A stretch of 57,003 nt of DNA from Klebsormidium nitens (lineage: Eukaryota > Plantae > Klebsormidiophyceae). The notes under the pieces were generated by a model that was not told the DNA's origin, searched no databases, and saw only the letters and a program-made list of their open reading frames with translations. Location: positions 1 through 57,003 of the forward strand of contig DF237527.1 of NCBI GenBank assembly GCA_000708835.1, read 5' to 3'. Positions 1-54,933 of this stretch are shown piece after piece; the first letter of the stretch is position 1, and the number at the start of each line of letters is the position of its first letter. A program made the translations under genes and the position numbers.

Positions 1-381
1 ATCTGGTAAGCGTCTCCATAACCTAGCTTTCGACAGATTGCCAGAAAAGGGGCTAGGCGGGTACGCCTAGACCCAGGGTTATCATAGTGCTCTAGAACAC
101 GTTCAACAATCTTTTGAGCTTTGCTCTTCACCCACGAGGGATCCTCTGGCATTTTTTCCTCGAAACACATCTGCCAAAGGAGCTGAATCCCCTTAAGGTA
201 CTGCTCCGTGGAGCTTTCGCTTCTAATCCCATCATCCAAGATCTTTCTGAGAGTGTCCACAGTTATCTTCGTCTAGTCCCATGCAAGATAATTGATTGAA
301 GACATTTCCCCTTCCGCATCAACTTATTTAAAAATGATCCGTCACAATAAAATGACATCGAAATCCTTCTCAAACGGTTAT

Positions 382-456
382 TTTCTAGAAACTGCGGGCG
401 GGGGCCTGAAAAATCTTTAGAAATCTCGAGATTTCTCAAGAGAATAACTAGTTATT
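382..456. other. Cluster of three perfect palindromes
   Basis: TTTCTAGAAA (382-391), AGAAATCTCGAGATTTCT (419-436) and AATAACTAGTTATT (443-456), with a GC-rich GCGGGCGGGGGC stretch between the first two. Read directly from the sequence. Confidence 0.9.
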
Positions 457-466
457 TAAAAGGCAG

Positions 467-1126
467 TTGACACTTTTTCACTGTCTCTCCGCATGCGTTT
501 TACAACATATGCACTATATAGTATGGCTTGTAGCTGATGATTTGCGGGCCTGCACAAGATGTAATGCATTAGTGGGCCGAACTTCGGAATTATTTTCGGC
601 GATCTCATCATCACAAGTGCATCAGGACAAGTATATGGAGTCCACAAAACGAAGCTTCCGTGTAAATGCTGCCTACGATGCAAAGGGGAATGATACCCTC
701 GCTCTGTTGAAGGATACGCGACTCGAGTTTGACGCACAGAAGGGTCGCGTCTGTCAAGCGGGGGCTCGAGCAGGATCCCAGCTTTTTCGTACTCAAAAGT
801 GCCAGGGGAAAAAGGTCTCCCTTCCACAAAAGATGGTAGTTCTGATCCAAGAAACCACACGAGGTTCCACAAACAAGAAGTACGGATACTCGGTTGAAAT
901 CGGTCCGGTGAAGAAAAGTAATCGTCCAACAGGTCTGCCATCTGAAGGAACTTTTCAGAGCACGGCAACAAAGATGGATGTTGAAGATATAGAAAGTATA
1001 AATTCTCCGAAGAGAAATTCAAGGGCGAAAACCACTCGCAAGCCCACGAGAAAAACCGTTGGAAAGAAGGCAACTCCGAGAAGGAGAGCAGAATCGGTCG
1101 ACTCCAATTCCGATTCCGAGTCATAA
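467..1126 (+). CDS. Hypothetical intronless ORF (219 aa) with a Lys/Arg-rich and then acidic C-terminus
   Basis: Open frame in the ORF track, with a basic low-complexity tail (RKPTRKTVGKKATPRRR) ending in SDSES. No recognisable family motif. Confidence 0.3.
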   Translation: MTLFHCLSACVLQHMHYIVWLVADDLRACTRCNALVGRTSELFSAISSSQVHQDKYMESTKRSFRVNAAYDAKGNDTLALLKDTRLEFDAQKGRVCQAGARAGSQLFRTQKCQGKKVSLPQKMVVLIQETTRGSTNKKYGYSVEIGPVKKSNRPTGLPSEGTFQSTATKMDVEDIESINSPKRNSRAKTTRKPTRKTVGKKATPRRRAESVDSNSDSES

Positions 1127-1905
1127 TCCGATCACTCGCAAAGATCCGAGGTGATCTGCAAATGCATGAACAAGAGATGTCATATTGTCGTGGCGTGATA
1201 AGGATTCGGGTATCCCCGTTTGCCGAGGCGTCCTGATCTAACTCCTGTTCTACACACTCCGGCCATATCGCACGCTTACTAGCATCACCCATATGTCACC
1301 ATCGATTCTGACGTACGGTCCATCCAAGACGCATGTTCGTCAAGATATATCAACTCATTTTACACACATAAGCTATCATTACAACGCTTGTAACAACCCT
1401 CATTGTGGGAAACATTTGCATGCTTCATGCCAATGCGATTGGAAAGAATTGCTTGCGTTCATATCAAACTTCGTAAGGTAGGGCACGCATTGAGCGACTT
1501 GAAACTTTCGCTGCCAGATCTGTAGGGCCCAAGCCATACGCATGCACTCCAGATTGCACAAAATGGTCTACATGTAGTTATTGACTCCTAGTATCAAATA
1601 TCCAACCAATTGCAAGGTGTATCTAACAGTAAGCAAGCCTTGCCAGAGCTTTACTTTCAGGAGCAGATTGCAAGCAGCAGATGCAATAAACGGCGCACTC
1701 GCTATCATGGATTACAACAAGGCTGGGGTTGTTTATAGCTTGAGGGGACCACAATCTAGAGCAAGACAACAAGCAAGCTGTAAGCTAGCTACACCGTCTC
1801 AAATACTTTACAGATTTTGCCGGATACCATCCACAAGGCGGCTACTAAAAGGTAGCCTATCCAAATTGCTCGACTTGCTGTACACGCTAAGCTTCTCCTT
1901 GATTA

Positions 1906-4488
1906 CTACTCTTCATCCTCCTCTCTTGGACCTACGGTGATACCGCACCTCTTATGCTGGACAAGTTCCGGCCACTCAAACGAGAGCCGCTCCACATACT
2001 CCCGCAGGACCACCGGGATCCTGTTCTTGAGAGCCTCTGAAGCCTCCAAACGGAGCTTCAATAACTGAGCCATCAGGTCTACCCCCAGGGGCCCTTGCAC
2101 AAGGCTGAGTCGTAGTCCGAGGGTCTCGCGAGAGACACCAACCTCCATATCGGTAGAGCCGTTTCCGCTTTCCGTTCTTTGAACCCTTCACATCCCCCAC
2201 CTCCTTTCTGCCAAACTTCTTTGCCTCCAAGCGCAATCCTAACGTCGAAAAGACGTGGTTTAGAGCAATTGTGGCTGTCTTCTGGGATGCCAGCACGTCA
2301 GAGATGCTAGCTGCTCGAGCATGGAACAATTTGACGTTCTCTGAGTAGTCCCGGAAGAAGGCGGTTCCGGCCAGACGCGACCTGAGCGTGCTAAGAGTAT
2401 CGGTTTCGTGAGCAGAATCAAGCGCGTGCTCGAAACCCATGACCGCCAAGAGCTCTCTCGCCATGGCTGCCATCTGAGGAGGATACATATGCCGCCCAAT
2501 CTCATTTCTGTCGTACTTGAAGTCTTCATCGATTACTTGCTCCAGGAAGTCGAGTGCTTGGATTGGCTTCGGCCCAAAGGTCCGCAAGAATTCCTCGCTG
2601 AGGAATGGCACGTCGTAGAACCGTGCCAGCAGAAACTTCTCCATCTGCACCGACTCCCCTTCCCGGTTCTGGTACATTCGAGTCCGCGCTTCGATGTCAG
2701 CGAACTCCGCTGGCGCGATGTTAGGGGCGCAGATCATCTCTTCCAGAAGATACTTGGCCCCACGCTCCCTTTCTTCCGAAGAGCCCGGATTCTCTTCGAC
2801 CGCCTCTTCGTCAACCAACTCCTCATCGCAGACGTCCTTGACAATGTGGCCGTCCTCCTGCAGCAAGTCCGTGAACTCCTCGTAGAAATGCGTTTGTCCG
2901 TTGAAGATCTCCTTTTCATTGTGAGTGAGAAGACGGGTTGTCGGATGCACACAGTTCAGCCCGCCCCTCCGATTTTGGTTGAGAAACCACTGATAGGTCT
3001 CTTCGAGCCCCAACCTTGCCTTCCTACCCGACTTGCTCCTCTTCGTCATGGACCCGCCCTCCAAGGGCCTTGGTACGATGGGCAGCCAGATGCCCTCCTG
3101 AACATAACACATGACTCGTTGATCTTCCAACTTTCGTACACGCCCCTTCATCTGATCGAGGCCCCGCGGGTGCGTACTCTTCTGGCAGATGTACATGAAC
3201 ATCTGATGAAACCAGTCCTGATTGAAATCCACGCCTGCTTCAACAGTGGGGCTGATGATCACAAGCTGCTTCCGCCACTGCGTATTCACGTCCTGCAGCC
3301 CTCGTTTGACTTCACCGTCCGAGTGCCGGGTGATGATCAGGATCTGGTCATCCGCGACAAGACTCTTCTTCAAGACCGCCGCCCCCAACTCTCGCGCTTT
3401 TTCTGAGGACATGCTCACGACAAAGACGTTGCGCCCAGCCCCGAGTGCCTCAAAAATTGCCCCCTCCCACTTGTCAAGCCCTTCGTTCTTGCCGTGAAGG
3501 AATTCAAACTCGAGGGGCCTCTCGGGGGCATGCTTGTTGACCACCACGGGGCTGCAGGATATCTCGTGCATCGTCAGGAACTCGTACGTCCGTTGCCCCA
3601 GGTGCCCGTCCAAGCAGATGATCCGCCGCGCTNNNNNNNNNNNNNNNNNNNNNNNNNNNNNNNNNNNNNNNNNNNNNNNNNNNNNNNNNNNNNNNNNNNN
3701 NNNNNNNNNNNNNNNNNNNNNNNNNNNNNNNNNNNNNNNNNNNNNNNNNNNNNNNNNNNNNNNNNNNNNNNNNNNNNNNNNNNNNNNNNNNNNNNNNNNN
3801 NNNNNNNNNNNNNNNNNNNNNNNNNNNNNNNNNNNNNNNNNNNNNNNNNNNNNNNNNNNNNNNNNNNNNNNNNNNNNNNNNNNNNNNNNNNNNNNNNNNN
3901 NNNNNNNNNNNNNNNNNNNNNNNNNNNNNNNNNNNNNNNNNNNNNNNNNNNNNNNNNNNNNNNNNNNNNNNNNNNNNNNNNNNNNNNNNNNNNNNNNNNN
4001 NNNNNNNNNNNNNNNNNNNNNNNNNNNNNNNNNNNNNNNNNNNNNNNNCAGATGATCCGCCGCGCTCTTTTCATCATATCAATAAAAAGCTGAATGACTC
4101 TGTGCCTCTCTCGAAGCGTGTCTGCCGAGAAGTGTGCCAAAATGGACTCGCATTCGTCCAGAACGAGCAGGTCGAACGCGGGGGCATCCTCGTCATCTTC
4201 AGCGAGCAGCCCGGGCAGGCTGTCCAGCTGGACGATGACGCGGGGATGGAGTTCCCGGTCGGCAAGAGGGTGGATGAAGCGGTCGCCGAGCATACACCCC
4301 TCCGCCTGCTTGAGATCCTCGTGGTGGGAGAACGTCTGGTGCTTGCCTGCCGCGTCAAGAGCTTGCGTGCGGCGGTAAGTAATCATGCAGATCTGGAGAC
4401 CTCAGCGAGAAGAGCCGCAAGAAGCATGCTTTTGCCGCTCCCCATGGGACTCCTGATCGGCAGAGTCTTGTACCGGCCCTCCAGCCAC
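1906..4488 (-). CDS. Exon encoding a UL9/origin-binding-protein-like superfamily 2 helicase
   Basis: Walker A SPMGSGKS (4428-4448), ITYRRTQA, Walker B LLVLDECES, RIICLDGHL (after closing the gap), VIISPTVEAGVDF and DQMKGRVRKL. These match the motif pattern of herpesvirus UL9 and NCLDV origin-binding helicases. Acceptor tgcag at 4489. Confidence 0.85.
3633..4048. other. Assembly gap (N run), probably spurious
   Basis: The same 18-mer CAGATGATCCGCCGCGCT flanks both sides (3615-3632 and 4049-4066). Merging the two copies restores MMKRARRIICLDGHLGQRT. Confidence 0.85.
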
Positions 4489-5566
4489 CTGCACGAAGGG
4501 GTGAGACAGGAATTTGAATCAATCTTCCAAAGCCAGTCAACCAGCAAAGTTAAGCGGCAACGTCCCTTTCCTCAAACATGGCCTACACCTTGCAAAAGGC
4601 AGAAGCCTGGATCCCTTATTTCCAATGACAGGGTGTAGACTAGCGGGGGGGCAAGTGCCCATGTGCCCATGTGACTGTTTTCCCTATCGCGGGGTGCGAT
4701 CGGATGTGTTTTTAAGGCCTACATCTTGCAAATGGCGAAAGACCGAACTTCCTGACTCCAATGACAAGGTGTGGGCCCGTTCAAACATTCCAGCCACTCC
4801 AAACTCACAGAGCTGCTTCCTGGACTGACCAAGCAGCCTGTTCTCATTTTCCAAGTGGACTACACTTTGCTGATGGTGACTCTTTTCCCTAGATTCCAAG
4901 AACGATGTGTGGGCCCGTTCGCACTTTCCAGCCACTCATTAAAGCCAACTTCAAACCCACAAACATTTCCTGAATCGGCCCAGCAACCGCTTCTCCGCTG
5001 GAAACCTGGCCTACACCTTGCAAGTGGCAGAATACTGCACTCCTTTCTCTCCAATAACAAGGTGTGGGCCAGTTCAAACGTTCCACCAGCCACTCATCCG
5101 AGATTTCGATCTCGATAAACCTGCTTCCCACCCTGACCAAGCAGCCTCTTCTCATCGGAATCTCGATAAACCTGCTTCCCTCCCTGACCAAGCAGCCTCT
5201 TCTCATCTTTCAGAATGGCCTACACTTTGCCAATGGTGAAAAACCTGTGTTCCTTAGATCCCAACGACGATGTGTGGAGGGCGGTTCAAACTTTCCAGCC
5301 ACTCGTTCAAGCCACTTCGACATCACAACCCTTTCCTGAATTGGCCCAGCAGCTGCTTCTCTTCACACCTATCGATAAAGCACCTGGCCTACACCTTGCA
5401 AATGGCAAAACCCTGAATTCCTTATTTCCAATGACAAGGTATAGATCCGTTCATCAGAATCTTGAAGTGAGAGACTGGTCAGCGACCAGACTCGCGGCAC
5501 TGACAAAAGCGACGCTGCCACACTCCCAGATGACGGCTCAGTGAAAGTATGAGTGCACAGCCTCAC
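4489..5566 (-). other. 1078-bp spliceosomal intron between the primase and helicase exons, containing six hairpin repeats
   Basis: Donor AA|GTGAG at 5566 and acceptor ttcgtgcag|G at 4489. The phase-2 join gives ...DIVNK-WLEGRYKTLPIRSPMGSGKS. Confidence 0.8.
5109..5207. repeat. Near-perfect 48-bp tandem duplication
   Basis: 5109-5156 and 5160-5207 (ATCTCGATAAACCTGCTTCCCWCCCTGACCAAGCAGCCTCTTCTCATC). Confidence 0.9.
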
Positions 5567-6867
5567 TTGTTCACGATGTCGTTGAAGACCACCTTGTCAG
5601 TCAAAGGGCGGACCCCGGCACGGATCAGCGCCAGATCCATGGGTGCGGCAGCCAGCGGGTCCCGATCCAGGTACTTCAGGTCGATCTCGGCAGCACCATC
5701 CTTCCAGGTCTCGTTGTCCACCCAGTAGGGCCCGAGGTACTTGGCCGGCAGGTTCTTGCAGCACACACCCGTCTCTGGATCGACCCGCTCGCTGCTGCAC
5801 ACCGCGAACACGGCGTTCCTCTCGCAATCCGCGACACAGAGGATGTCCCGCCCCCCAGCATGCACATGCCCTGAGTAGCATGGCTCGCTCCGATCATGCC
5901 AGCTAAAGTTCAGCGAGTTTGCCGAACCCCTGTGGTACGCCGTTGGGTGCAGATTCTGGATGAGCTCTGTGCACCGCTGCACCTCATACATGCTCGCAGC
6001 TCTGGGGTTTAGGTGGCCTGGATTCTCCGGCCTCTCGCGCGGGCGCACTGCTCTTAACAGGACGTCGGGGACCTTGATCGCTTGAACGTGGTCATCGAAC
6101 CAGGTAATGCAGGCGTCCGCGTACGGCTTACTCTCGTCCAAGGGAATCAGGCGGCTGTGGGGGTTAGAGGGTTTCGAACAGAAGGGGAGTCGGATCCCCC
6201 GGTTCCTGGTGTAGACCGATTGATCAATGAGCTCGGCGTAGCAGTCCGGCAAGCGCAGACCGAACTTCCTCGCGAGATGCCCCGCTCCTTGGGGGTCCGC
6301 CGGGGGCGCCAGGTTGGAGCGGTAGACAAACTGGGGGGAGTGGGAGGAGATGACCAGGTGCAAGCTGAATTTGCCGCCTGGCCCATAGTCGCAGGGGATC
6401 CAATTGAAGGCTTCCTTTGGGAGCTCCAGGCCGTATTCCGATTCGAAGATGGCCTTGATTGCCTCCTCGAAGGCGCCAATAACCGTCTCGAGGGTTTCCC
6501 CGTCCGGCAGGCCCCCATCTCGTTCCAGATCCAGGTACGGCTTGCAGGGACACCCCGCTTTGATGGCTTCCTCCAGGTGAAGCTCGTCGCGCAGGTTGGG
6601 GTAGGCTGAGGGCCAATCCGGGTAAGACCCAAACTCCCGGGAGGGACGCAGGCGACGGATTTCGACCTGATGGCCAAGGACTTCCCCGTGACGACGGCAG
6701 CAACCCTGCGGCCCGTTCTTCGCGTCCTGGTAGTCGACCTTGTCGTCGAACTTGCGCTTGGCGAAGAAGAAGGTGCCCAGCTCCGCCTTCTTGACGGTCA
6801 GCAACTTCCCGCCGTGCTCCTCGTGGACCACGATCTGGCCAGGGCGAGGGTCCACTGACGAACCATC
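5567..6867 (-). CDS. Exon encoding a PrimPol/herpes-NCLDV-type archaeo-eukaryotic primase domain plus Zn finger
   Basis: AEP motif I KPYLDLE, motif II KFSLHLVI and motif III IDQSVYTRNRGIRLP...K. These are followed by C-x4-H-x-H...C...C (EPCYSGHVH...VCSSERV...CCK), resembling the PrimPol/UL52 Zn finger. The ORF-track 'start' ATGCAG at 6873 is really an acceptor (catgcag|GAT). Confidence 0.85.
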
Positions 6868-7353
6868 CTGCATGAGAGAAACCAGACTGTGTCACTGCTT
6901 GGAGACATACAGCGGCTCCGGAAATCCTTACTTAGAGAAAACGCTGTCCTGAAGAAAGGCAGAATCTCATGTCTCTGACCGCAACAGCCGGTACTAGTGC
7001 CGAATCTCAGTCAGCTCGACCGCAATGACCAGGGGAATTGCGACAGGGCACGACTGCTCCGAGAAGCAGCCTTGAACAGATCGACGACCTTCATCAGATA
7101 TGCAAGCACAGTGATACGAAAAAGACTGACCACCCTTTTTGGAGGGGTTCGCAGAGGACGGCAACTTCGAGGACGGGATCCGGTCTCACTCACTACCTAC
7201 GTTACCCGTCTTCTGGACAAGGAGCCTGAAGACCTCGACTACAATGGAGAAGATGACAACATGCTGTTTGACAAAGAAGATCTCTCTAGACTGTGCTTAA
7301 ACATGTGATCACACTGAGCATTAGTTGACGTCTTTGGTGCAATTCAGACTTAC

Positions 7354-10300
7354 ATCTTCGATGGAAGCCTGATCTCGGGGTCGAGAAGGCTCGTTCCGAG
7401 TGGGGGCTGTGCTGGGTTGGCCGGCATCCACAACAGGGGGGGGCGTGGCTGCGCTATTGAGATCTCGAGCGGCAAACCCCCGGAGCTGCTGCCGCTCGTC
7501 CTGGCTCCCCTCAAAACCCTGCAAAGCGCACGCTGGGATCAGAAACTTGCTTTCGAGTCTACTCTCACCTTCCAAAAACAGCTTGCTTTGGCCTACACCT
7601 TGCAGATGGCTGAAGACTGCTCTCTTTAATTCCAATGACAAGGTGTGGACCGGGGGCAGGGCACGTGCACATCATCGTTTGCCAATCCCTGTGTAATCGG
7701 ATTTGCTTCTGGCCTACACCTTGCGGATGGTAAAAGACTAGGTTCCTTATTTCCAATGACAGGGTGTGGACCAGAGGCGGGGCACATACGTTGTGATCTG
7801 AGCGGTCATTACTAAGCATCTTCTAAGCAGCTTGGGACTTACATCTTCGAAGGAAGCCTCGCTATCCAATCGAGGAGGCTCGTTCGGGTTGGGGGATGTG
7901 TTGCGTTGGCCGGCCATCACATCAGGGGGCGGGATGGTTGCGCGGCTAACAACCTCAGCTGCGATCGCCTGGAGCTGCTGGCGCTCGTCCGAGCCCTCGC
8001 CCCGTCCTGGTTGAAGGTCCTGCACATATACGCATGATTGGTCAGAGCGAGTCAGCACTCTACAAAAAAGCGCCGCACTTTCAAAACCTTCCTTCCTTGT
8101 GTCCATACCTTGCAGCTGACCAGAACATAATCCACGGATGCGGAGATCAGGGCATGAATTATGGGTTTGAACGAGTCGACAACGAGAAGAGGCTAGGTTC
8201 CCGTGGACAAGTACGTGCTCACTGTGTGCTGACCGCGCCAGGGTTGGGAATGCTTCTGGCCTACACCTTGCAAACGGCGAAAGACTGAACTCTTTAACTC
8301 CACTAACAAGGTGTGGACCAACTCCCGGTTCCTATATGGAGAAACGGGCCCTCGTCCGTGACAGTCTGCTCTCGATCGAGCTTGAATCTCATGGTCCAGA
8401 CAGGTTACATAAGCTCATGTGCATTGACAAGGTGCAAACGGCATGAAAGGCATGAGAATGTCTCTGCGCAATTGGGACTTACAGCTTCGATTGAAGCCCA
8501 GGCTGCCGATCGAGAAGGCAGATCGAAGTTGGGGGCTGCGCTGGGCTCGCCAGCTTCTGCGCCGGGGGCCAGGCTCGTTGCGCTGCTGAGATTGTCGGGA
8601 GGGATCCCTGGGAACCGCTGGCACGCATCCTGACCCCTCTCAAATTCCTGCAAAAACGCTGATGTCGGAATCAAACACTAACAAACGAGCCTGCCCTCGA
8701 TTCTCAGAACACGGCTTGCTGTGGCCTACACCTTGCAGATGGCACAAGACTTGGATCCTTACTTCCATTGACAAGGTGTGGACCAGAGGCAGGGCACGTG
8801 CCTGCCATCGAATAGCCAACCGCTGTATGGTCAGGCTCGCTTGTGGCCTACACCTTGCAAATGGCTGAAGAATGATTTCCTTATTTCTAATGACAAGGTG
8901 TGGACCAAAGGCAGGGCACGTGCCTGCCATCGAATAGCCAAACGCTGTATGCTCGGGCTCGCTTATGGCCTACACCTTGCATCTGGCGAACACTGGTTTC
9001 CTTATAACTGATGACAAGGTGTAGACCAGAGGCGCGTGCCCACCATGCCCGTCCGCACTCAGGCTTGAGCTTGCGTCCAAGAACGACCCAACATGTCGGA
9101 CCCAAAGGTGACGCTGACATTCGATGCACTGCTTGACCGTGCATGCCTACACCCTCATGATCGCCCTGACACCAACCTAAACCTGCATGCTAAGCTCGCA
9201 TATCTGACCGTTGACGGATTAATGAAAGTCTCTAGATAAACCCAGCACGCGCATTCCCTGATACCGCCCGCCTCACCTCAGCCTGCCCAATCGCCTCCCG
9301 TGGACTGTGCTGTTGAGACTGGCGCATCGCTTTGTCGAAGTACCTGAAACGAATGAGAGCATATGGGTGAAAATTCAAATGAGAATCGTCGAAACTGCAC
9401 ACGGTGTGCTGTCCCGAAGTGCGTTTTCTGCCGCTGATCAGTCGACCTGCACCCGCATGACTCGAGTTATTCAAGAGCAGGGGCTCACTTGCGACCAGAC
9501 TGCTGCTCCTCTTCACGGACTTGGGCCACCGTCGCGTCCACGAACGGACGCTCGCCAGGTGCCTCTGCCGCAACTGCTTCTTGGGCGGCTCGATGCCCCC
9601 CTCCCTGCGCCTCGAACATCCGGCGCACCATCGCCTGCGAAAAGGAGCGAGTGCGTGTTTCCGTCAGATCTCCAAAGGTGACGGCTATTAAAGCCCATCT
9701 TGACGATGTTTCAACATCGCAGTCGATGTAGGTAAACGGCAGAAAGCAGATTGGCTTTCTCCAAGGAGATGTGCACAAAATTCTGCACCTTGGCAGCGAG
9801 GGGGTCCAATTGCGAAACCCAGAGATGAACGAGAGCCACATCAATGCGAGCCACAGCACTAAGAAACGCGCCAGCAAGGGCTGCGGGCGGCACTCTGGGA
9901 TCAGCCGAAAAGGGTCGCACCTCTTACCCGTTTGAAAGGGGCCTCAATCCCTTCAGAGTTCGAAAGTGAGCTTCACTAGCCGCCAAGATCTCCGCCCGAG
10001 CCCCCTCATCCACCGGGGCAGGGATTGGTTTCACACGCTTGCTGTGAGTGCAACGGGGAAGAAGCGAATCAGCGCCCGGCCAAAGCTTCCTCAGTCACAG
10101 GCCTGCTACACTGCAGAAAGCCGCCAGCACAAGGTTCCCATATCGACTCATGAGGCCTTCTCGGTGCTCTCCGTACCCATTGACTCGAGCAGACTGGATC
10201 TTGACATCGGGATCATTTGCAGAAGTGGAACCCAAGATGACAAACCAAGGAGCAACGGACTTACTGTAGCTTCTTCTTTGTCGGTCGACCAGTCTTTGGC

Positions 10301-12609
10301 GCCCCTGATGTTGACACCCCATGTACTTCAATCTGGGAGCAAACAATATGACGGAGTGGTGAGCAACTATCAAAGCTGGTCACGAGGAAAACCTAGCCTG
10401 GCTCCTTTACGAGATTCTCAAGAAGCGGCCGAACAGGTAGAGTGAGACGAATGCCAGGGAAAATTCACACCTCGTTCTTCTACTGCCATTAAATGGTTTC
10501 ACTCGACAAGCAAGCTCACCCGACAAGCAAGCTTTTGTCTAGGATGAAGGAGGGGAAATCTTCTACAGCCATGTGGGCTGGGAGGAGTACCTCAACTCGC
10601 ACTTTTTGCCATGTGGGAAATGAAGTGCGCGGGACGGTCAAGTGAAAGGGGGCGACAGGGGCTTGAATAAAGTTGAGGGCCATATCATTCCGGGAATGCC
10701 CCTTTTCCGCACAGGAATGCGAGTGCACTCACCGAAGGTGTAGGCTCCGTAGCAGCAGAGCGAAGCTCATCGGCATGATGTGGAGAAGCGGGGAAAGGGT
10801 CCGTGTTCTGCACAACAGGAAGGAGGCGAGGGACTTAGGGGCAAGCGGCATGGATATGAGGCAACTGTAGACGACGAAAAACCATTGCGATGCAACTAAG
10901 AGGCTCGGAGTAGCCGATTGAAATCCGAGAGCAGCAACCCGTTTGCTTTTCTAAATCTTTCTGGACAAGAACCTAGGACACCAAATAGGCACCTTTTCAA
11001 GGACGTTTACCTTGCAGCACTTCCAAGTGCGTCAAGGACACTGCCTAGATCCAGCGCAGACAGTGGCTCATCGAGTCCCCAGCTTCGAGATTCAGTAAAT
11101 AGTCCGACTCACATGTAGCTCCCCAGCAGCGGACCCTGTGAACTGCTGGCACACATCATCACCATCGCCTGTTGCCACGCCAGGTTCCTGCACACGAGGA
11201 CACGCATTTGATGAGAGTTGAGCAAACCCCTTTCGCATATGGTGACACCTTGCCAATGGAGAGAGACTCGATGTTTGCACCAATGATGATGTGTGGACTG
11301 TTCAGAAACCAGAGACAAGAGGTAAAACATCATCGGCTTTGAATAATGCAGGGTGTGGTCGGGCTTGCTTGTGGCCTACACCTTGCAGATGGCAAAAGAC
11401 TAGTTCCTTAGAACTAATGATAAGGTGTGGACCAGATGTGAACCAGAGGCGGGCACGTTCTTTTTGGAGGGGCTCGCTTATGGCCTACACCTTGCAGATG
11501 GCAAAAGACTGGTTTCCTTATTTCCAATGACAAGGTGTAGACCGAAGGCGCATGCATATCATAGCCATCCGGCTCAGACTCGAGCTTGCGTCCAACAGGC
11601 CGGTGCGGTGATACGAGTGTGTGTTGGATTGGCCGCCCTTGGTGGAGGAGTTCAAAGAGGATGGCGGCTTCGAGGACAGGGATCAGAGCTCAGTCACTCC
11701 CTACGTGACCGATCTCTTGGAGGCGGATCCTGAAGGCCTTCAACAAGCCTAAACACAAGGAGGAAGAGGATCTCTTTGGACTTTGCGCATACACAGAGAA
11801 TGTGATGCCTGATCAGATCAGTCATCAATGCGTTTTTCGAGCAGTTGAAACTTACATCTTCGAGGGAAGGCTCGTTTCGGTTTGGGGTTATGCTGGGTTG
11901 GTCAGCATCCACAACAGAGGACGGCCTTGCTGCGCGGCTGACAACTTCAACGGCAATCCCTCGGAGCGATTGGCGCACGTCCTGCCCCCCCTCGAGTTCC
12001 TGCGAAGCGCACTTCAGAATCAAAAACTCGCTTTCGAGCCTACCCTCGTCCCTCAAGAGCCACTTGCCTTGGCCCACACCTTGCAGATGGCAAAGAATGG
12101 GTTCCTTATTCCACGGACAAGGTGCGGATCGGGGCCGCCTAAACCTTGCAGAATGCACATACAGAGTGTGGATGAAAGGCGGGACACGTGCTCATCGTCG
12201 ATCTTGCCGATTGCTGTGTGGTCGGGCTCGCTTATGGCCTACACATTGCAGATGCCGAAAAGGTGAATTCCTAATTTCCAATGACAAGGTGTAGACCAAG
12301 TTCTCAAAAGGGAGAGACGGGCCCTCACCCACCATCAGCGCTGTCGATCGAGCTTTCATCGCATGGTTCAGCCAGGCTTTGTAAGCTCAGGTCAAGCGAA
12401 GAGTCTGGCGAAATCGTATGCCTTTGTGCACGATCCGAACTTACATCTCCAACTGAAGCGCAGGTCGCGAGTCGAGAACGCGGATCGAAGTTGGGAGCGG
12501 CGCTGGGCTCGCCAGCTTCTGCAACGGAAGACCGGCTTGATGCGTCACTGGAATTCTCGGCAGGGGTCCCTTGGAGCCGCTGTCGCGCATCCTGGCGCCT
12601 CTCGAGTTC
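7354..12609 (-). repeat. Five paralogous phase-0/phase-0 exons (7518-7354, 8019-7843, 8647-8483, 11999-11856, 12609-12445)
   Basis: Each starts after gcag and ends at GTAAGT. Lengths are 165, 177, 165, 144 and 165 nt, all multiples of 3. The peptides are related (xEGxQDxRQxL...AGxPS..PNxNxP...ASxED). Confidence 0.8.
8723..9027. repeat. 122-bp tandem array built on the hairpin unit (2.5 copies)
   Basis: Hairpins start at 8723, 8845 and 8967. The conserved linker is AGGCAGGGCACGTGCCTGCCATCGAATAGCCAA...GGCTCGCTT. Confidence 0.9.
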
Positions 12610-13409
12610 CTGCGTAAAGTGCACACGGGATTTGCACTCGCATCCGATCCTACCCTCATACCGGACAAGGTGTGGACCGGAGGCGGGGCACGTGCCTACA
12701 GTCGAATAGCCGACCGCTGTATGGTCGGGCTGGCTTATGGCCTACACCTTGCAAGTGGCAAAAGGCTGGGTTCCTTATTTCTGATGACAAGGTGTGGACC
12801 GGAGGCGGGGGGGGGGTGCGCGCCCACCATGCGCGCCGCATGTGCGTCCGAGTCTGACCCAACATGTCGGACCCAAGCCTGACACTGATCTGCTTGACCC
12901 TGCATGCCTAACCTCTCATGATTGCCTTGACCCCCACATGGCCCTGCATCCCAAAACCGCAAACTTGACTGTTGACAAATCCATGTAAGCCTCTCACAAC
13001 CCAGCACATGCGTTCTCTGGTAACTGTCAGCCTCACCTCAGCATGCCTAAGCGCTTCCCGTGGGCTGTGCTGGATGGACTGCCGCACTGCCGTTATGAAA
13101 CGCCTGAAAAAATTGGAAGCATCTGGGTGAAAACCTGGGCAAGTATCATGACATCTCAGACGGTTTGCTGTCATGAGGACGTTTCTGCAGCTAATCAGTC
13201 GACCTGCACCCGCTCGCACGGACACGAAAGAGACATTCAGGAGCAGAGGCTCACTCGCCACCCTGCTGGTCCTCTTCGCCGACTTCGGGCACCGTCACGT
13301 CCACGCGCGAGCGCTCCCGCACAGTCTCGGCCGCGGCTGCCACTTGGGCGCATTGATTTCCCCCTCCCTGCGCCTCGGGCATCCGCCGGGCCGTCGTCTG
13401 CGAGACGAG

Positions 13410-13556
13410 CGAGTGCGTGTTTCCGTCCGATCTCAAAGGTGGCAGGTGTTTATGCCCATCTTAACGATTCTTAACATCACCACCGAGTGCGTGTTTCCGT
13501 CCGATCTCAAAGGTGGCAGGTGTTTATGCCCATCTTAACGATTCTTAACATCACCA
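13410..13556. repeat. Perfect 73-bp tandem duplication (period 74)
   Basis: CGAGTGCGTGTTTCCGTCCGATCTCAAAGG...TTAACATCACCA at 13410-13482 and 13484-13556. It is single-copy in the paralogous segment (~9650). Confidence 0.9.
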
Positions 13557-15139
13557 TCGAATCCAGGTGAACGGCAGAAAGCAAATGCGCATTTTCCAAA
13601 GAGATGAGCGCGGGAGGCGGCGAGGGATTCCAACCACGAAGCAAAGATGAACGCAAGCCAGAGCACTGACAAATCCGCCAGCAAGGGCTGTAAGCGGCAC
13701 TCCGAGATTTAGCCGAAAGGTTCGCACCTCTTGCCCGTTTGGATGGGGCCTCAATCCCTCCAAAGTTCGGAAGTGAGCCTCACGAGCCGCCTGAATGTCC
13801 ACCCGAGCCGCCTCGTCCATCGGGGCAGGAATCGGCTTCTCACGCTTGCTGTGGGTGGCACGCTTGCTGTGGGTGAAGGGAGAAGAAGGATCCAAGTTAG
13901 TGACGGGCCAAAGCTCCTCAGCCACAGGCCTGTTACCCTTGCAAAAAGCCGCCTGCATAAGTTCTCTACGTTTGCACCAGGTCCCAATGTCGACTGAAGA
14001 TGCCTCTGTATGCTCAGTGACCCGATCAGACTGAATCCTAACCAGGATCACTGGCAAAAGTCGAGCCCAAGATGACAAAGGAGGGGACAGCGAGCTTACT
14101 GTGACTTTTTCTTCGCCGGTGGACCAGCCTTTGGCACCGACGATTTTGATCCCCCTGCTGCTTCAACCTGGGGGGAAGCAATCTGGCGGAGGGGTGAGCA
14201 AGTATTGAAGCTGCGCACGACCACTATCACGAATAAGACCTAGGGCTCTTTTATGATTGTCAGAAAGCGGCCGGCCAGGATCCAGCGAAACGTATGCAAG
14301 CAACTGCGCTAAGGAGATCGTTTCGAATCCTAGCCTCCTACTGACAATGAACGGTCTCACCCTAAAAGCGAGCTCTTGTCTGGAACGCCGAAGGAAAGTT
14401 CTACAACCACGCGGGCTGGTTGGCATACCTGACTTTGCACTACTCTGTCATGTGGGGAGTCGGGTTGAGCAGGGCGGTCGAGTGGAATGGGGCGGAAGAG
14501 GCTCGAATGGAGTCGAGGGACATATCATCCTCGAGATGCCCCTTTCCCGCACAGAATGCAAGTGGGCTCACCAAAGGAGTAGGCTCCGCAGCAGCAAAGC
14601 GAGGCTCAACGGCAGGATGCGAAGGAGTGCGAAAAGGGCCCTTGAACTGCACAACAAGAAGGCAGGGGGGTCAGGGGCAGTCGGCGTGGATACGAGGCAA
14701 CTTTAGAGGACGGAATTTTACTTCGATGCATTAGAGAGGCTCGAAGTGGTCAACTGAGATCCGAGAGTAGCAGCGTTATTCGCTTTTCTGAATCTTTCTA
14801 GACAAGAGCTCCAGACACAGACGAGCACCTTTTCGAGCACAATTGACTTTGCGGCACTTCAAGTGCTCCAGAAACTCTGCCTACATATGGCGCATACGAT
14901 GGCTAACCTAGCCTCCGGCATCGAGAATTGGGGAATGCTTCAACTCACGTGTAGCTCCCCAGCAGCGGACCCCGAGAACTGCTGGTTTACATCATGACCA
15001 TTGCCTGTTGCCACGCCAAGCTCCTGCACACATGGACACGCATCTGATGAGCATCGAGCAAACCCCTTTTGCATATGCTCCACACCTTGCAAACGTGGGG
15101 AGACTCCATGTCGGCACCAATGACGGTGCGTGGATGTTG

Positions 15140-15180
15140 AGAGGAGGAGAGAGAAGAGAGAGATAGAGAGAAGAGAAAAG
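15140..15180. repeat. GA-rich polypurine microsatellite
   Basis: gagaggaggagagaagagagagatagagagaagagaaaag. Confidence 0.8.
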
Positions 15181-17511
15181 TGCCCATCCTCGGCTTTGAA
15201 TATCGCAGGATGTGATCGGGCTTGCTTGTGGCCTACACCTTGCAGATGGCAGAGGCTTAAATTCCTTACTTCCAATGACAAGGTCTAGACCCGATTGTCG
15301 AGAAGATGCGTGATGCATGACCATCTTCTGCCCTGAGAGTTGTGGGTTGTGGACCGCGGGGGTGTGGTCCGGCTTTTATTGTGGCCTACACCTTGCATAT
15401 GGCAGAAGCCTGGATTCCTTATTTCTAATGGCAAGGTGTAGACCAGCAGCGGGGGCTTCCCGCTCAGCCTGGACTCCATTCGCAAGCTCAACAGAAAAGG
15501 CCACACAAGGATCGTGTTCTGTAAAAGAACGGACTGCCTGATTCATGGATTTTGCAGGGCACAAGAGTTCCTCAAGCGTACCAACGAGCGGCTCACAGGT
15601 GAGACTGGCTGCAGCGTGGGCACGTGCTTCTCCTCCGCCCCCTCTGACTCTTGAGAAAGGACTGTGCGGCGTCGCTTCCTCGCGAGCGCCCGTCCTGTTA
15701 ACACCAGCCCACCAATGTCCTCCTCGAGACAAGCTTCTTCTGGGCAGCGCGCGCCTTCCCCTTGGAAGGACTGCGAAGCCAAGACGCAAGAAGACTGACT
15801 GCTGTGGACTTCAGCCCACGATCAATCTGAATGTTAGCGCCTTTCTGAAGAGAATTCAAGGTTGCTTCAGCATGCATGTGCTGCAGCTGAATTGGGTGCC
15901 TTAGCGGCGCACCAACTTCAGCAATCGAACGGAGTCGCAGCGAGACAGATTGCGCTGACATCATGAGTATCACGTTTCGCAGCTTTTTGCCATCCAATTC
16001 TCACCTTGCGTTTGCGTTTGAGAGACGGTGATACAGAGACCGGCTTTCCGAAAGCGCTGTCGGTAGACCAATTGGCAAATGGAGAGGTGGGTGAATCACC
16101 CTGTACAGCACAGCAAACGCCGAAGTGAGAGAGCAGAAGACACCACTTTTGCATAAAACTGTCGCAACTGATTAGTAGAGACCCTGGTGCAAACTTCAGA
16201 CACAGACTTTCAAGACAACATGGTGCGTGCAGGTCATTGGCAGGGGCCCGAGTGCCCGCTGGACTGACTTGATACTGACCTCATTGTTGAGAGCCCTGTA
16301 GAAGCTTGGACCTTGTATGCCGTCAGAATCTTGATCGTCGAAGAACCCTTGTAGTGACTGTCCAGACTGAGAACCATCAACGGATCGATTAGCGTACTCA
16401 GCACCTTCGATGTCCTCTGCTTGAGTCCCTTCTGATTCTGACACATCACTGTACACAAGAGCAGAATGACTGTGAGCATCCCAGCCTGCACCAGACATGA
16501 GTGCATTCCAAAAACCAGGCAGGACGTCGCAACAAGTTCCCGCGCTGATCCTGCAACTCTGCAAGTCTGCAAGTCTATTGGAAATTGACCAGAATTGACG
16601 TCATTGGACCTCTTGAGCACACATGCCTTTGCAGTCACCCTACCCAACTCCCCGTTCCCGATTCTGAGCACAACTTCCTTCCAGCCCAGTGCTGTCCCAG
16701 AAGAGCACTCACCTATCCCAAGGCAGGCGCATGTCGGAAGACATGGCAGCTCAGCTGGCGTACGCAGCCAGCCTTTTAGCACCCAGAGCTCAGTCAGGTT
16801 TCACAGCCTGATCAGCTTCAGCTGCTGGTCGTCAGCACCAAGTCTGCGCTTCACAGGGTTGACCTAGCTTCACCTTACTACAGGAAGTCTCAGTGGCATG
16901 AAACTCCTACCATAAAGGCAGGCAGTACTGAGTCACGAAAGGAGCAACGACTGCAGGTGGCGTGTCCGCAGGCAAACCCGCATGTCGTTTGGAAAGCTGG
17001 GAGAGGGTTGAGAAGGAAGCTGAGGGTTTCCAGGAAAGCTCATCTGCAAATGAAAGGATTGAGCGAGAGATTGACTCTTTATATCCCATGGGCAGGTAAG
17101 TTCAGTCGAACACTGTGCATGATCCAGTAAAGCTGCAACCTCTGCTTTGTTGGTAGGCTTCTGCGTCGGCAGAAGCTTCCAATCCCTTCCAGATTGAAGC
17201 TTCTGCTGCACTGGCCTTGTCAGAGCCTGACTCAGACTGCTGAGTCAAGCAGAACTTTCGCCTTGTACTGAACCCTAGCCGGCCTTGGCATGGCGCACCC
17301 AAGACTCGGACGCACCAAGGTTCCCGCCATTTTGCTGCCAGCTGGACTCGGACGCGAAGAAAGTTCAGCAAAGCCTGTCTTCTTGTTCGCACAGCCTTGA
17401 GCGCGCGCTGCTCGCGAAGGGTCGTTCGGGCGACGAAACCTTCTGGACATCTTTAGTGCGGTGGCAGGCGCCGCCTCCACTGGTCTCTGTGGGACGTCAC
17501 CGGTAAGGTGA

Positions 17512-20500
17512 ATGGCGTCTGCCGCAGTGCTCTTTAAAGTGGCTGGGGCAAAATTCGTATGTTCGCGCGGGCAGGCAGACATCGCCCCTGCAACGCCCCA
17601 GCGATTTGCTTTCGGGACACTTCGTCCATCTCTGTATGAGGGATTGAGGCTGGGCCGTTTTCATACCGACTACAGGGTGGGGTCAGGATTGAGGCGCTTC
17701 TTGCCAAGGGCAGAGATTCCCCAGGAGGGAGCAGAGTCTCCCGGAAGTTCCAACTTGGTTGACAGCGTGCCTCAGGCTGAACAGGTCAAGGATGAGGCAC
17801 AGGCTCTCAAGTCGAGCATCAAGCGTGTGGAGAAGGAGATTGACGATGTGGAGAACCAGATTAAGATTGCTGCGGCTGCAGGCAAGAACACAGATTTCTT
17901 GCAGCAGAAGGAGGTCGCGCTGCGGCAGAAGGAGGCCGCGCTGGAGCAGCGACTGACCGCGCTCGCACAGGCGGAGGTGGAAAAATTGAAGCTGCAGCAG
18001 ACACCAGGTACATCTCCCGTCCTCTTACGCATGGAGAGCTGTCTCCTTGAAGCAGCCCGGCAAATTAGCGCATAGATGTGAATAAGACCATGAGCAGCAT
18101 TCTGCTGCCAACGTTGTGCTGCAGGCAATTCCCCTGCTGCTTGTCGATGTTTCGCAAAGAGAGTGGTAGGGCACACCGCACAGAGGGTTTCTATTTGTCT
18201 TTGCCTGCAGTTCAGGAGTCTGCTCAATGAGCCATGGTAACCTGTCTCGATTGTTGCTGCTTAAGAAGGGTTTTTGTATCTGTGTTTGCCTGAGGTTGGT
18301 GTGTTGCTCTGTGAGTCATGGCACTTGCAGACGGAAAGGTTTTGCGGTGCAGAGAAACTACTTCAACCTCATAGCCTGCTCAGCAGTTACAGTTGGCTTA
18401 TCCAGTGACTGCATGTGGAATGCTAACAGATAGCTTCTGTCGTGTGCAGCGGCGGGGGTTCCAGACCCTGCAGTCTTGGGTAAGTCTCTGTACCTGTCTC
18501 CACCGGTCGGCGCTGTGTGCCGAAGCGCTTGTCGCACCTGTCAGCATCGTTTTCTGACTGGTGTAGAGTTCCTGCATTGGCGTAATCCAGGTTCTGCCAC
18601 TGGGCAGTGCCCACCACAAAGGCGACTCGCTTCGTGGAGGGCTGGTGTGAAGTTTCTTGCATCCGAACGAGAGTGTCTAATCTGCCGGTGGTCAGCTTCC
18701 ACCACAACGATGGTCTGCTTCTTCTTCCAGAGAGGCTCCAGAAGTACGCTGAGCTCATTGCGCATGCGGACACCGCCAGTGGAGTCATTCAGATTCCGCC
18801 CGAGCTTAGGGAAGGACTGCCACCAGGCCTAAAGGACAGCATTCTAATTCGGGAGTGCTACTGCATGGTGCTGAAGAAGCTCGAGGCTCTTGGGGACGAC
18901 TTTGCGGTTGTCCTGAGTGGCACCCCGGGCATCGGAAAGTCTGCCATTGCTGTCCTCCTACTGCACCACCTGGCAGAGCAGGGGGCACAGGTGGCCTACA
19001 GGTACACTTACACCTCTCTTGGCTGGCCAAATCTGTAACTGCGTGCTCTAACTTGTGTCGCTGAGCACGTTGCTTCTAACAAGGCCTTCCTCAACAAGAG
19101 AGATGCTTCCTTGTTCTGTGCCAACCCTATGTGCCAACTTTATCAATCTGCCTCACAGGTACATGGACACCATCAACAAGGACACCATAATCTTCTTCGA
19201 TTTCTCCAATCCGTCTGCGATCGACGTCAAACAGGCCTCGGAAGGCGATGCTGACTGGCGATCCCTTCGAGGTAAGCAAACAGGTGTCATGATATTGCAA
19301 CTGTGAAACCCTTGTTTGGCATCCAAGTGTAATTGGCTTCTGGCTTCAGATCATTGTAAAGGGCTCATGTTGGTTGATGCTCGATGGGAACACACTTCGC
19401 TTTTGAAACCAGGTGACCGTGTAATCACCTAAAAAAACGCACTCTCTCTGGGTCTTGGCTATTGACGAAGTGGTGTGTGACCGGGCTCTGCTCGCGTTCA
19501 CCAGCACTGATTAGCCAGAGATAGCAATGATTGTCCTCTCTGGCTACAGCTCTCTGCAAGCGCTCTTCTGTCTGGCTAGTACAAGATGGACGAGCTCCCC
19601 GCGAGACGCAGTTCCCGGGTGAAGGCCGCTGGGTGGTGCTGTGCTCGCCAAATGCAGACAATTATGCGGAGTTCGTCAAGGGGAAGTAAGTATTTGGACC
19701 GAAGTCGACAGATGCTCTAAAGCGATTGCTTCATGGACAGAGAGATGTGGGACCTCATTGTGGTCTAGGATTTGAGATCTTGCCCGAGCCCGCAAAGCTG
19801 ATTTTCCTTGCTGCTCGTTCCTTCATCTTATGCTGTTCTCTTATAGGTCGATTGAATCCTGGCTGCATGTCTTCGGCGGTTGCAGCCCTGGCAGGATGTT
19901 ACTAGATCCTCTCAGGTTTTCTGATCACTTGAAGTTTCGCTGGCCTACACCTGCGTCTCTCATCAAGTCATCGGGCATAGACAGACTTCCACCCCGTCTG
20001 ACCCCTTGCTCTTGCCACAGCAGGCACTTTGCTTCTGTGACCTGCTCTCAATCTGCATTAATGTCGCAGGCACGCTGAAGTCTGGTGGCTCCCTGTGTGG
20101 ACGCTAGATGAGTTGCTGGACTGCCGGCAGCGCCTCTACCCTCACGTGTCGCAAAAGCAGACGGAGGATCGGTTCGAGCAGTTTGGCGGGGTCGTCAGGA
20201 GCGTCTTGGCGGACCCCGGCCGATCGTTTGAGCGTCTTGCGAGGTCGCTCTCAGCTTTGGAGGCGGTGAACCTGTATCGCCTTGGCGCAGCAGCTTTGAA
20301 GAGCGCCATGAGGCACGCATTTGCGCACATTGAAGTGAGTCACCTTGAGGCAAAGGAGGGTCGACTGAAAGCCGACCATTCAGAAGTCGGCTTGGTCTTT
20401 GTTGTGCTCGTGTCTTTCGCCTTGGTTGGCATGCATATTTGCAGTGGAAAGGCAGGTGGCGCAGTTGGCGCAGTGCCTGGCTTTCATAGGTCTCCAGCAT

Positions 20501-21445
20501 GTATACGACGGCATCCACTCACTTGCAGAGGGACAATTAGCGCTTGACCTCCTTGTTCATCTGTCCATGTAGGCGACGAAAGATCTGGAGTTTGACGGGT
20601 TTCGTCTCGGTTCGCCGCGCATCGGGGACCTCGTCTTTCAAAGAGCCAAGGACGGCCGATGGCAGGACCTAGTGGACCTACTGCACGCGGCTGCCAGCAA
20701 TTCTAGGGTCGGCGAGATGTCAGGGTCCTCGTTGGAGGCGTACGGGCATGTGAGGTGCGTCCTGGGCGTAGACCTGGACGACGACGACATCAAGGAGGTG
20801 TTTCGAAAGCGACGCGGCCGGCCTCGGAAGCAGGAGGGAACGAAGGAGGGAGCGAGAGAGGGCGGGGAGGTGTCCGCGAATGACTCGGGTCAGTCGAGAA
20901 AGCGGGAGGAAGCGGTTGAAGAGATCAAAGAGGCGTTCTGGAGCTGCAAGGATTTTGTGTCCGACAGCAAGGAGGAGGGAATGAATCTGGCGGATCTGAA
21001 GCACACGTACCTCCGGCCAACCACAAGAGATCAAGAGTCGTGGGATGGGCTACTTTGCCCCGGTGGCGATTGGATCTATGCTGTCCAGTTCACGCGCAAC
21101 CCCGGGCATGGGATCAGCGCGCAAGGGATTTCGGACCTTCTGAACCGCATCGGAAGAAAGCAGCTTCGAGTAGTCCTTGCGGTTCCAGGAGAGAAGTTTG
21201 ATAACTATGGTTGGCAGCCGTGGACCGGTCCCAAGAGAAAAGGTGTGGATGGGGAGATGGTCATGACAAAAGGCGCTCTTCCAGAGAACGAGGTCCCTCC
21301 CAAGCTGAAGAGCATCAAACAATGGGTGGTTCGTCTGAAGCTGCCTGAAGCGGGGGACGATGTTCCGCGCATCCCCGAAAATATGTTAGTGTTGCCTGAC
21401 AAAGAATTGTCCGATGATGACTTGTCTGACGACTTGTCCAGATAG
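17512..21445 (+). CDS. Crinkler/RHS (CR)-type protein: transit-peptide-like N-terminus, coiled coil, P-loop CR-NTPase, C-terminal PD-(D/E)XK-like REase (~758 aa, 6 exons)
   Basis: Exons 17512-18007, 18608-19001, 19159-19271, 19550-19685, 20070-20334 and 20573-21445; all splice phases match. Motifs: ILIRECY, LSGTPGIGKS, VWLVQDG, VVLCSPN..Y.EF, LPVWTLDELLDCR..LYP, FGGVVRSVL, GSSLEAYGH, and YLRP....SWDGL....YAVQFT....H...LRVVLAVP...F..Y..Q. Confidence 0.8.
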
Positions 21446-52900: not shown

Positions 52901-53586
52901 ATTATGGCCAAGCCATAGTAACCAGCACTATTTATTACCCGGTCACGCGGTTCTAGATCGTTGCGGTCTCGTTGCGGGAACATGTCGATAACATACCAGA
53001 CAAGTTTCGGCACACTCGGCTAAAGAAAAATGTCAGGCTAGAGTGTGTCGAGTCGGAATTATATTCAGCACTGCTTGTTGAGTGGTGACTTAAACTAGGG
53101 TAGGCAGGAATTCGAGTCCATGCTAGAATGTAGCTCAGTGCACCATGTGAGACAGTAAACAAGAAAAAAGTGAAGCCAGGCTTCATTCTTTCTTCCGTTC
53201 AGTCAAAAGTTTGATATGGGGCGGCAATCTTGAGCCCATGCGAACTGTACGATGGCCAGAAGGCAGTCTCAACTCGGTTACTATGTGTGGCGTGACATGT
53301 GAAGTGTGAATAGCGAAGGCACATGCGGTTCTGAATTCTGAGGTGCGCTGTGAGCGGAGGCGAGCATTACAAAAGAAAGAATCATCAGAGTTGCATTTAG
53401 TGCATCGATCGGCGGCTAGTGGGCTACTGGAACGCTAAAACGACCCTTGGTGGATTCTGGTGGAATTGGGTTCTGTAACGGGTCAATTCAAGAAGGTGAT
53501 TAAACAGCCAACGGGTTATGACTCGGATATATAAGCTATGGGAGTGCCGTTTGATCCACTGCTCTATCAACGGAGGTCCTTGGGGC

Positions 53587-54072
53587 CTTGAAACTTGAGC
53601 GATTAGCTAACTCAAACAATTCCAGCGACAACTTGTATGAAGGTCCTTCGGGCCCTTCAAATGCATGCAAGCAATTACGCTAATTCAAGCAATCCAAGCA
53701 ACTACTATGTATGGGGATTCATGGAGGCCTTGAAACATGAGCAATTGCGCTAATTCGAGCAATATAAGCAACGGCTGTATGAATGGGTCATCAGACTCAG
53801 AGCACTTGAAAATATGAGCAATTACGCTAATTTGAGCAATCCAAGCAATTGTTATATGTAGGGCTCATAAGTCGAAGTGCATGAAAAGATAAGCATTTAC
53901 GCTAATTCAAGCAATCGGACTCGCAGACGCATTGTGAAGGGGTTTTGAAGGCTCTTGAAATATGAGCATTTACGCTAATTCAAGCAATCCGAGCAACTGT
54001 AATCAATGGGGTCCCTATCGTTAGGACCTTTGAAACGCGAGCAGTTGTCCTAATTCAAGCTTTCCAAGCAAC
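53587..54072. repeat. Seven-unit tandem array, ~75-bp period, with a conserved ~44-bp core
   Basis: Core CTTGAAAnATGAGCAATTACGCTAATTCAAGCAATCCAAGCAAC starts at 53587, 53655, 53729, 53805, 53880, 53954 and 54029. An inverted partial copy lies at ~54091-54113. Confidence 0.9.
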
Positions 54073-54740: not shown

Positions 54741-54933
54741 TTCGAGTGCATATACTGCATACATTAATGTACCAGCACCAGCTGCTTTTGACCTAGGATA
54801 GCGTTGCCATACTTTTCAAACCCCCTCCACTCCCTTTGATAGCATCCCAGGCCGCCCCTATGATCATAGTTAGCGTTACGCGTTACGTTTCCGTTTTCCA
54901 CCAGAATCCACCAAGGGTCATTTTAGCGTCCCC

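Follow-up and report, generated by a model that had tools for sequence, protein, structure and literature searches.

Proteins that join an AEP primase to a UL9-like SF2 helicase are known from mimivirus R8, pF1055L of African swine fever virus (ASFV) and some mriyaviruses (bioRxiv 2024.02.29.582850), and giant-virus genes have been reported in the alga Klebsormidium nitens (PMC5294986). The same alga is described as encoding Dicer-like (DCL) and AGO1/5/10-type proteins (PMC7994812, PMC9864873). Here we describe an array of short hairpins in the introns of a K. nitens AEP-UL9 gene, KFL_005780015, within a window of 57,003 nt (the whole stretch analysed; contig DF237527.1 of assembly GCA_000708835.1, forward strand). 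These hairpins are a real and selected element that had not been described before, and their mechanism is unproven. The literature yielded no account of the repeat, with supplements and subscription papers outside the scope of the search, and three literature matches to the arm sequence came from unrelated work.

Constraint and strand bias in the hairpin arms

A first-pass annotation of this DNA had pointed to about 19 same-orientation hairpins of some 62 bp that leave the modelled exons uninterrupted. Both observations hold. The + strand carries 19 full copies with lengths of 59-64 bp (exactly 62 bp in 13 of them); their arms are imperfect inverted repeats of 13-21 bp, and all 19 lie clear of the exons in the database gene model (P0003). 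They occupy 7 of its 22 introns, at 70-924 bp from the splice sites. Profile E-values for these copies run from 1e-23 to 3e-12, by construction.

The 19 hairpins are not independent, because the region carries an old tandem block duplication (7124-15444), in which 11627-15444 repeats 7124-11543 with about 70% identity, exons and hairpins doubled together, as well as units of 109-153 bp in local tandem. Across the four duplicate blocks that were aligned, the left 21 bases of the hairpins are identical at 97/105 positions (92%) and the right 21 bases at 88/104 (85%), compared with 72/106 (68%) for the loop, 1363/1950 (70%) for other intron and 653/846 (77%) for exon. This comparison covers five hairpin pairs, in which intact copies were picked by their arms and their own loops served as the control. 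The arms differ from intron at p 1e-9 with CpG sites removed (p 1e-8 with a decayed pair included), and from the loop at p 2e-5. That decayed pair (11239-11300 and its duplicate 15076-15137, both on the + strand) diverges at the intron rate (71-75%) and provides an internal control. Since the arms outlast both loop and intron in duplicates that have stayed in place, they are under constraint; indeed, they are kept better than the surrounding coding exons. The left arm in particular is nearly frozen, with 8 parsimony events as against 31 in the right arm (p 3e-4).

The substitutions are also biased by strand. When transitions are placed on a tree of the units, 24 of them preserve G-U pairing on the + strand, which is antisense to the gene, and 4 do so on the sense (-) strand, against a flanking-sequence background of 51% (p 1.5e-4). 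The bias extends, at 7 to 1, to the inner 3-bp stem, which lies outside the 13-bp palindrome; of the inner stems proposed at first pass, TGG/CCA is present in the consensus fold and AAG/CTT is absent from it. Taken together, these substitutions are suggestive of a fold on the + strand. Arm asymmetry and strand bias, with no double compensation beyond chance, argue that the left arm is held by its sequence and the right arm by its pairing to the left. The same asymmetric, strand-biased pattern disfavours a cruciform, one of the roles raised at first pass, along with a symmetric dimer site and arm-to-arm repair, the last of which should also erase lasting mismatches.

A microRNA-like reading of the + strand

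In microRNA families, conservation typically falls from the mature arm to the star arm and then to the loop, and their hallmark is a frozen arm of 21-22 bases with U as its first base, opposite a partner that tolerates wobble pairs, together with a neutral loop of about 22 nt and some pairing at the base of the stem. A precursor is expected to hold a duplex of 20-24 nt with no more than about 5 mismatches and no large asymmetric bulge. The hairpins follow this gradient (92%, 85% and 68%; 8 vs 31 events). Their duplex spans 21 bp, with at most 5 in-register mismatches in 13/19 copies on the + strand and 15/19 on the - strand, and 19-24 nt between the arms. Flank pairing on the + strand exceeds that of 300/300 letter-shuffles, while on the - strand 82/300 shuffles reach the observed value. 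In addition, two copies found in contigs of RNA-type runs (four runs from four studies, classed as RNA by guess, from their spliced joints) have arms that match window copies, loops that differ and flanks absent from the window, and one of them recurs in 4/4 runs; that these copies in foreign surroundings keep both arms and not the loop counts in favour of a microRNA-like element. The idea of a small-RNA precursor, voiced at first pass, thus gains indirect support from the frozen 5' arm, the G-U-tolerant 3' arm, the neutral loop and the outside copies that keep the arms alone, though not from covariation.

We tentatively favour, at somewhat less than an even chance, the reading that the hairpins are constrained intronic repeats, likely folding as + strand RNA, whose left arm would be cut out as a microRNA-like RNA of about 21 nt. 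An antisense transcript would cross the AEP-UL9 locus, and a Dicer-like enzyme would release the left arm, with the right arm as star strand. The candidate at 7589-7609, for example, would begin with a 5' U, and its nucleotides 2-9 are identical in 17/19 copies. This reading predicts a discrete RNA of 21-22 nt whose first base is the T that precedes each left arm. As its weakest step, the microRNA-like RNA would most likely damp or mark the virus-related gene family; the AEP-UL9 family is the likely target because no perfect complements were found other than these hairpins themselves, read in the sense pre-mRNA. The unit itself probably began as a small inverted-repeat element, given that both orientations and unrelated flanks occur, and would then have spread by tandem and exon-block duplication. 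If the reading is true, an antisense, short-precursor, multi-copy family would show small-RNA processing in streptophyte algae and offer a possible view of how they tame endogenised viral replication genes. No description of K. nitens microRNA loci was found in the literature, where supplements and subscription papers were beyond scope and a small-RNA catalogue could exist.

A number of observations weigh against this reading, and some of them concern the strand itself. Counted once per column, the strand bias falls to 11 to 4 (p 0.07), and the tree that underlies the event count has short branches. The first pass had also preferred the + strand for its folding, a preference that the substitution patterns uphold and the energies do not: the core folds better on the - strand in 13/19 copies and, with 12-15 nt of flank, on the + strand in 11-12/19, so that folding energy picks no strand with either RNA or DNA parameters. 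Two conserved C.A mismatches on the + strand are G-U pairs on the - strand. The covariation check suggested at first pass gave nothing beyond shuffles, as a single pair has changed on both sides and 207/500 shuffles reach that number.

Other points concern processing and target. Land-plant DCL1 is reported to use a stem of 15-17 bp beside the duplex (PMC9864873), and the basal stem of the hairpins is short and patchy by that measure, with + strand basal pairing at p<0.05 in 4/19 copies and 19-24 nt on the loop side; cognate flank pairs do no better than permuted ones (p 0.10). Apart from the hairpins, the window yielded no target site for the left arm with a penalty <7. KFL_005780015 appears in RNA contigs and is well spliced, a state that does not resemble strong silencing, and the transcription evidence consists of assembled contigs that carry no strand information. 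Finally, known algal intronic microRNAs are described as deriving from the host mRNA itself (PMC4817775).

The host gene and the distribution of copies

KFL_005780015 (1976-16732, - strand; 23 exons and 22 introns in the database model) consists of 21 small exons for a low-complexity N-terminal region, followed by an AEP (PrimPol-like) primase exon and a UL9-type SF2 helicase part. The AEP exon (5566-6867, -) has the motifs DxE, SxH and D and shares about 70% identity with paralogues in K. nitens; a protein search with it returned KFL_005780015 itself and five K. nitens paralogues at 55-71% identity, a later search added a sixth, more distant paralogue, and the match to human PrimPol is weak (E 0.006). 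AEP relatives (P0012-P0015), at 59-71% identity, are encoded on JGI/IMG contigs of 12-60 kb. The helicase part (1976-4487, -; Pfam PF02399, E 1e-6) is out of frame. Relative to the paralogues, the frame first changes near 4383-4392, where the spliced frame meets a stop at 4383, and it shifts once more near 2102-2112; RNA-type contigs have identical letters at both places. A helicase half that is out of frame twice, elsewhere open and transcribed suggests a recent loss, and because of it the product would comprise the low-complexity N-terminus and the AEP domain with no helicase.

The gene is spliced and expressed. RNA-type contigs from the four studies contain at least 15 joints in all, and many of the hairpin-bearing introns are marked by spliced joints that have CT..AC ends or by loose ends that match; thin or absent coverage of introns in contigs was not counted as evidence. 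A run of 416 N (3633-4048) is an assembly artefact, since contigs of all four runs bridge 3614 to 4049. Beyond the 3' end of the gene, and convergent with it, lies an intronless open reading frame (ORF; 635-1126, +) in the low-GC left end of the window, with no Pfam match, a possible source of antisense read-through.

The hairpins fall into eight groups, all on the + strand. Six of them (4580-4641, 4716-4777, 4857-4915, 5008-5070, 5217-5280 and 5386-5447) share an intron of 1078 bp, its edges taken from loose ends of RNA-type contigs, that separates the AEP exon from the helicase part. Two follow at a 121-bp period (7590-7651 and 7711-7772), then a single one (8258-8319) and three at a 122-bp period (8723-8784, 8845-8906 and 8967-9027), two of which are trailed by a GC-rich stem-loop. 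Pairs occur at 11373-11433 and 11482-11543, at 12071-12130 and 12236-12297, where there is also an internally deleted remnant (12136-12172), and at 15230-15291 and 15383-15444, and one full hairpin (12739-12800) accompanies a lone right arm (12666-12678) at a duplication junction. The first pass had seen no copies elsewhere in the window, a statement that has to be withdrawn. In addition to fragments near 8100, 12136 and 12666, a two-arm profile scan of the masked window revealed three extra full-length decayed copies above all 60 shuffles, namely the + strand pair at 11239 and 15076 and a copy in opposite orientation (1564-1626, -) in the 3' untranslated region (UTR) of KFL_005780015. The latter (score 30.6; shuffle maximum 23.1) has recognisable arms that no longer pair and an unrelated 21-nt loop, and RNA-type contigs extend past it to 1525 and 1539.

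This 3' UTR copy bears on the possibility that the hairpins act in the sense pre-mRNA, whether as intronic small-RNA precursors with the conserved arm at 3', as protein-binding stem-loops or as splicing aids, in which case the inverted copy could be a target or pairing site. Transcription of this strand is known, the sense fold is as good as the + strand fold (15/19 duplexes at no more than 5 mismatches), the two conserved mismatches become G-U, and the sense 3' arm pairs with the UTR copy across 12 contiguous bases; moreover, most Chlamydomonas microRNAs are reported to derive from introns and UTRs (PMC4817775). We nevertheless consider a sense-strand role improbable. The C-to-U changes that would keep sense G-U pairs are the rarest class (4/28 transitions), and the variable end of the conserved arm would fall at the 5' seed end. 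The UTR site, for its part, is explained as a relic copy because both arms are present at the right spacing. As for splicing, which the first pass had listed among the candidate roles, 15/22 introns carry no hairpin and the distance to splice sites varies widely, so that together with the strand-biased constraint a splicing structure is disfavoured.

Nor is the family confined to this locus, as had been proposed, for contigs place copies in further AEP-UL9 loci as well as in unrelated flanks. In one run, the DNA contigs with ≥80% likeness to 4400-7800 comprise 114 records (31 at ≥99%), many of them from AEP paralogues, a count outside which copies less than 80% alike fall. Among the contig pieces listed, a second locus, about 85-90% identical, has its hairpins in these same introns, other contigs join a hairpin to the AEP exon end (7749 to 5562) or to an AEP-adjacent intron (7074 to 7710), and one AEP contig crosses the main intron without a hairpin. 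Summed contig depth gives about 30-54 further copies, 11 of them in the window, a rough figure as depth is no true copy number. The genome thus holds roughly tens of copies, not hundreds, in a family that belongs mostly to AEP-UL9 loci, with some outlying members, and is no high-copy repeat at ≥80% likeness. The case that would have spoken against a special link, a high-copy genome-wide miniature inverted-repeat transposable element (MITE) unrelated to AEP-UL9, is not seen in the DNA contigs, and the link to the paralogues holds. In viral contigs, the two-arm pattern has no match and no close AEP relative was found; a single match to a left-arm 18-mer lacks the right arm and was taken as chance, as were four two-arm matches in metagenome contigs, which have weak profile scores and no AEP-UL9 match.

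A distribution of this kind raises the question of whether the hairpins are functionless relics of a small inverted-repeat mobile element that spread by tandem and block duplication, with arms that are alike through gene conversion or hairpin-templated repair. The interdependence of the copies, the inverted copy and those in unrelated flanks, the five copies that are decayed or partial, and a GC-rich stem-loop after the right arm in 5/19 copies (≤ -11 kcal/mol), as at Helentron ends, are all consistent with such an origin. Conversion, however, should not skip the central 22-nt loop (68%) between arms at 85-92%, and arm-to-arm repair would clear persistent mismatches and yield compensatory changes, neither of which is seen. 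Furthermore, left-right asymmetry and strand bias are explained by neither process, copy number is low, and no target-site duplication is visible by eye in the flanks. Neutral relics are, in our judgement, an unlikely account.

The main rival, which we hold to be doubtful and on a par with neutral relics, is that the hairpins are + strand single-stranded DNA (ssDNA) signals at which the AEP-UL9 protein, or another mobile-element enzyme, would prime, load or copy. Plasmid single-strand initiation sites and herpes origin hairpins offer analogies. The hairpins are co-inherited with the primase-helicase gene, both at the second locus of about 85-90% identity and in the further contigs that join them to an AEP exon or intron; the AEP motifs are intact in KFL_005780015, G-T tolerance on one strand is compatible with ssDNA, and one copy (1564-1626) is in the opposite orientation. 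UL9, in addition, is described as binding origins (bioRxiv 2025.10.31.685793), which counts for such a signal. Yet the helicase half is out of frame, the motif is present at 0/12 viral loci encoding a distantly related protein, and at least one AEP contig among the pieces listed spans the main intron without a hairpin. With DNA parameters the inner stem is less than 50% paired and no strand is favoured, and yet this stem shows the G-U bias. The gene also lies in a setting without viral features: no capsid, integrase or other viral gene occurs among the 22 window ORFs scanned, and no terminal repeats were found around it. Priming or loading by the PrimPol-helicase, as imagined at first pass, is therefore weakened as a role in cis, given the broken helicase frame of this copy and the absence of the motif from the viral relatives scanned, and could take place in trans through the paralogues.

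It is tempting to go one step further and imagine a nuclear self-priming element, in which a giant-virus-related AEP-UL9 protein would recognise its own strand-specific ssDNA hairpins across the introns of its gene family and drive copying of the module, although we rate this more specific version as more improbable still than a sense-strand role. Such an element would parallel, in a eukaryote, the single-strand initiation sites of plasmids or the bacterial REP arrays around their cognate enzyme, and an ssDNA signal of whichever kind would point to a eukaryotic mobile element that is driven by a primase and has not been described.

The ORFs around KFL_005780015, from the set of 22 scanned, have an algal or transposon-like character (longin domains, RelA/SpoT, NTPase) and not a viral one. 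Head to head with the gene stands a spliced gene for a STAND-type NTPase (17512-21445, +; nSTAND3, E 4e-6), which resembles CRN/CR-type genes. Farther along the window, an element of about 1.5 kb (53429-54932) with 55-nt terminal inverted repeats (82% complementary), five to six repeats of 70-77 bp (53570-54090) and inverted copies of its internal repeat near 54250 resembles a non-autonomous DNA transposon. Beside it, the GC-rich segment 54950-56090 (+) looks by eye like a decayed long terminal repeat (LTR) retrotransposon integrase with a PHD-like finger, with no Pfam match in the two ORFs scanned. The window also holds a long inverted repeat (34941-35107; 75-nt arms, 76% complementary, 17-nt loop) and an AT-rich, MITE-like pair of 26-nt inverted repeats 143 nt apart (25525-25719).

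Comparison with known systems

The first pass had not recognised the motif as a known RNA family, and a scan of positions 1-20000 with 4227 Rfam families agrees, returning one chance match (E 0.82) outside the hairpins. A type II hammerhead has the core CUGANGA plus GAAA; CTGATGA stands before the right arm in 2/19 copies, the GAAA core is absent after the left arm, and this identity was rejected. Mirtrons and introners were set aside as well, the hairpin ends being 70-924 bp from splice sites and not at them. SECIS, kink-turn, H/ACA, tRNA-like and Y-RNA readings were dropped by eye, on consensus features. A match of 10-12 bases between the right arm and the AEP motif-III codons (6205-6217) is not in seed position and was likewise set aside. 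A scan for bacterial promoters and terminators stayed at chance level.

The protein layout of the host gene is that of the viral AEP-SF2 primase-helicases (mimivirus R8, ASFV pF1055L and mriyaviruses), with AEP at the N-terminus and a UL9-like SF2 helicase at the C-terminus. Unlike these, the K. nitens gene is nuclear, has 22 spliceosomal introns, algal neighbours, a long low-complexity N-terminus and a helicase that is out of frame; the viral relatives are about 25% identical and do not have the hairpin. The origin oriS of HSV-1 (herpes simplex virus 1), with its UL9 box I, likewise combines inverted sites of fixed spacing with a nearby UL9-family gene (bioRxiv 2025.10.31.685793), but the K. 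nitens arms do not resemble box I and their spacer is not AT-rich. An exact match to the 11-base HSV-1 UL9 box I does occur at 4916-4926, right after one hairpin; it is present in 1/4 sister flanks and is most likely drift.

Among mobile elements, the non-autonomous Helentrons of the HINE/DINE-1 type share with the hairpins subterminal inverted repeats of 12-15 bp, a lack of target-site duplication, tandem units and, in some cases, a 3' stem-loop (PMC4067079). The 13-bp arms fall within that range. The stem-loop, however, is found in 5/19 K. nitens copies, T-rich ends are not evident on both sides (the left flank has T at -3 in 13/19 copies and at -4 in 11/19), and copy number is low. Moreover, the K. 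nitens arms are constrained after in-place duplication, and the window yielded no Rep-helicase partner. MITEs and MITE-derived microRNAs are built from a small inverted-repeat unit with conserved ends and a variable interior that occurs in both orientations. The K. nitens unit has all of these features, including terminal inverted repeats; it differs in its length of 62 bp, in its tens of copies as opposed to the hundreds of a high-copy dispersed family, and in its clustering in one gene family. By eye, flanking sequence of the 19 copies is either inverted or unrelated and contains no direct repeats of the kind left by target-site duplication.

For the microRNA-like reading that we tentatively favour, a close described counterpart is the multi-copy and intronic microRNAs of Chlamydomonas, which are reported as short stem-loops in the introns and UTRs of algal coding genes (PMC4817775). 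The K. nitens hairpins are likewise short stem-loops within an algal coding gene; they differ in numbering 19 copies in a single gene, in a supported fold that is antisense to their host, in having no evident flanking stem of the land-plant type (15-17 bp) and in a small RNA that is predicted.

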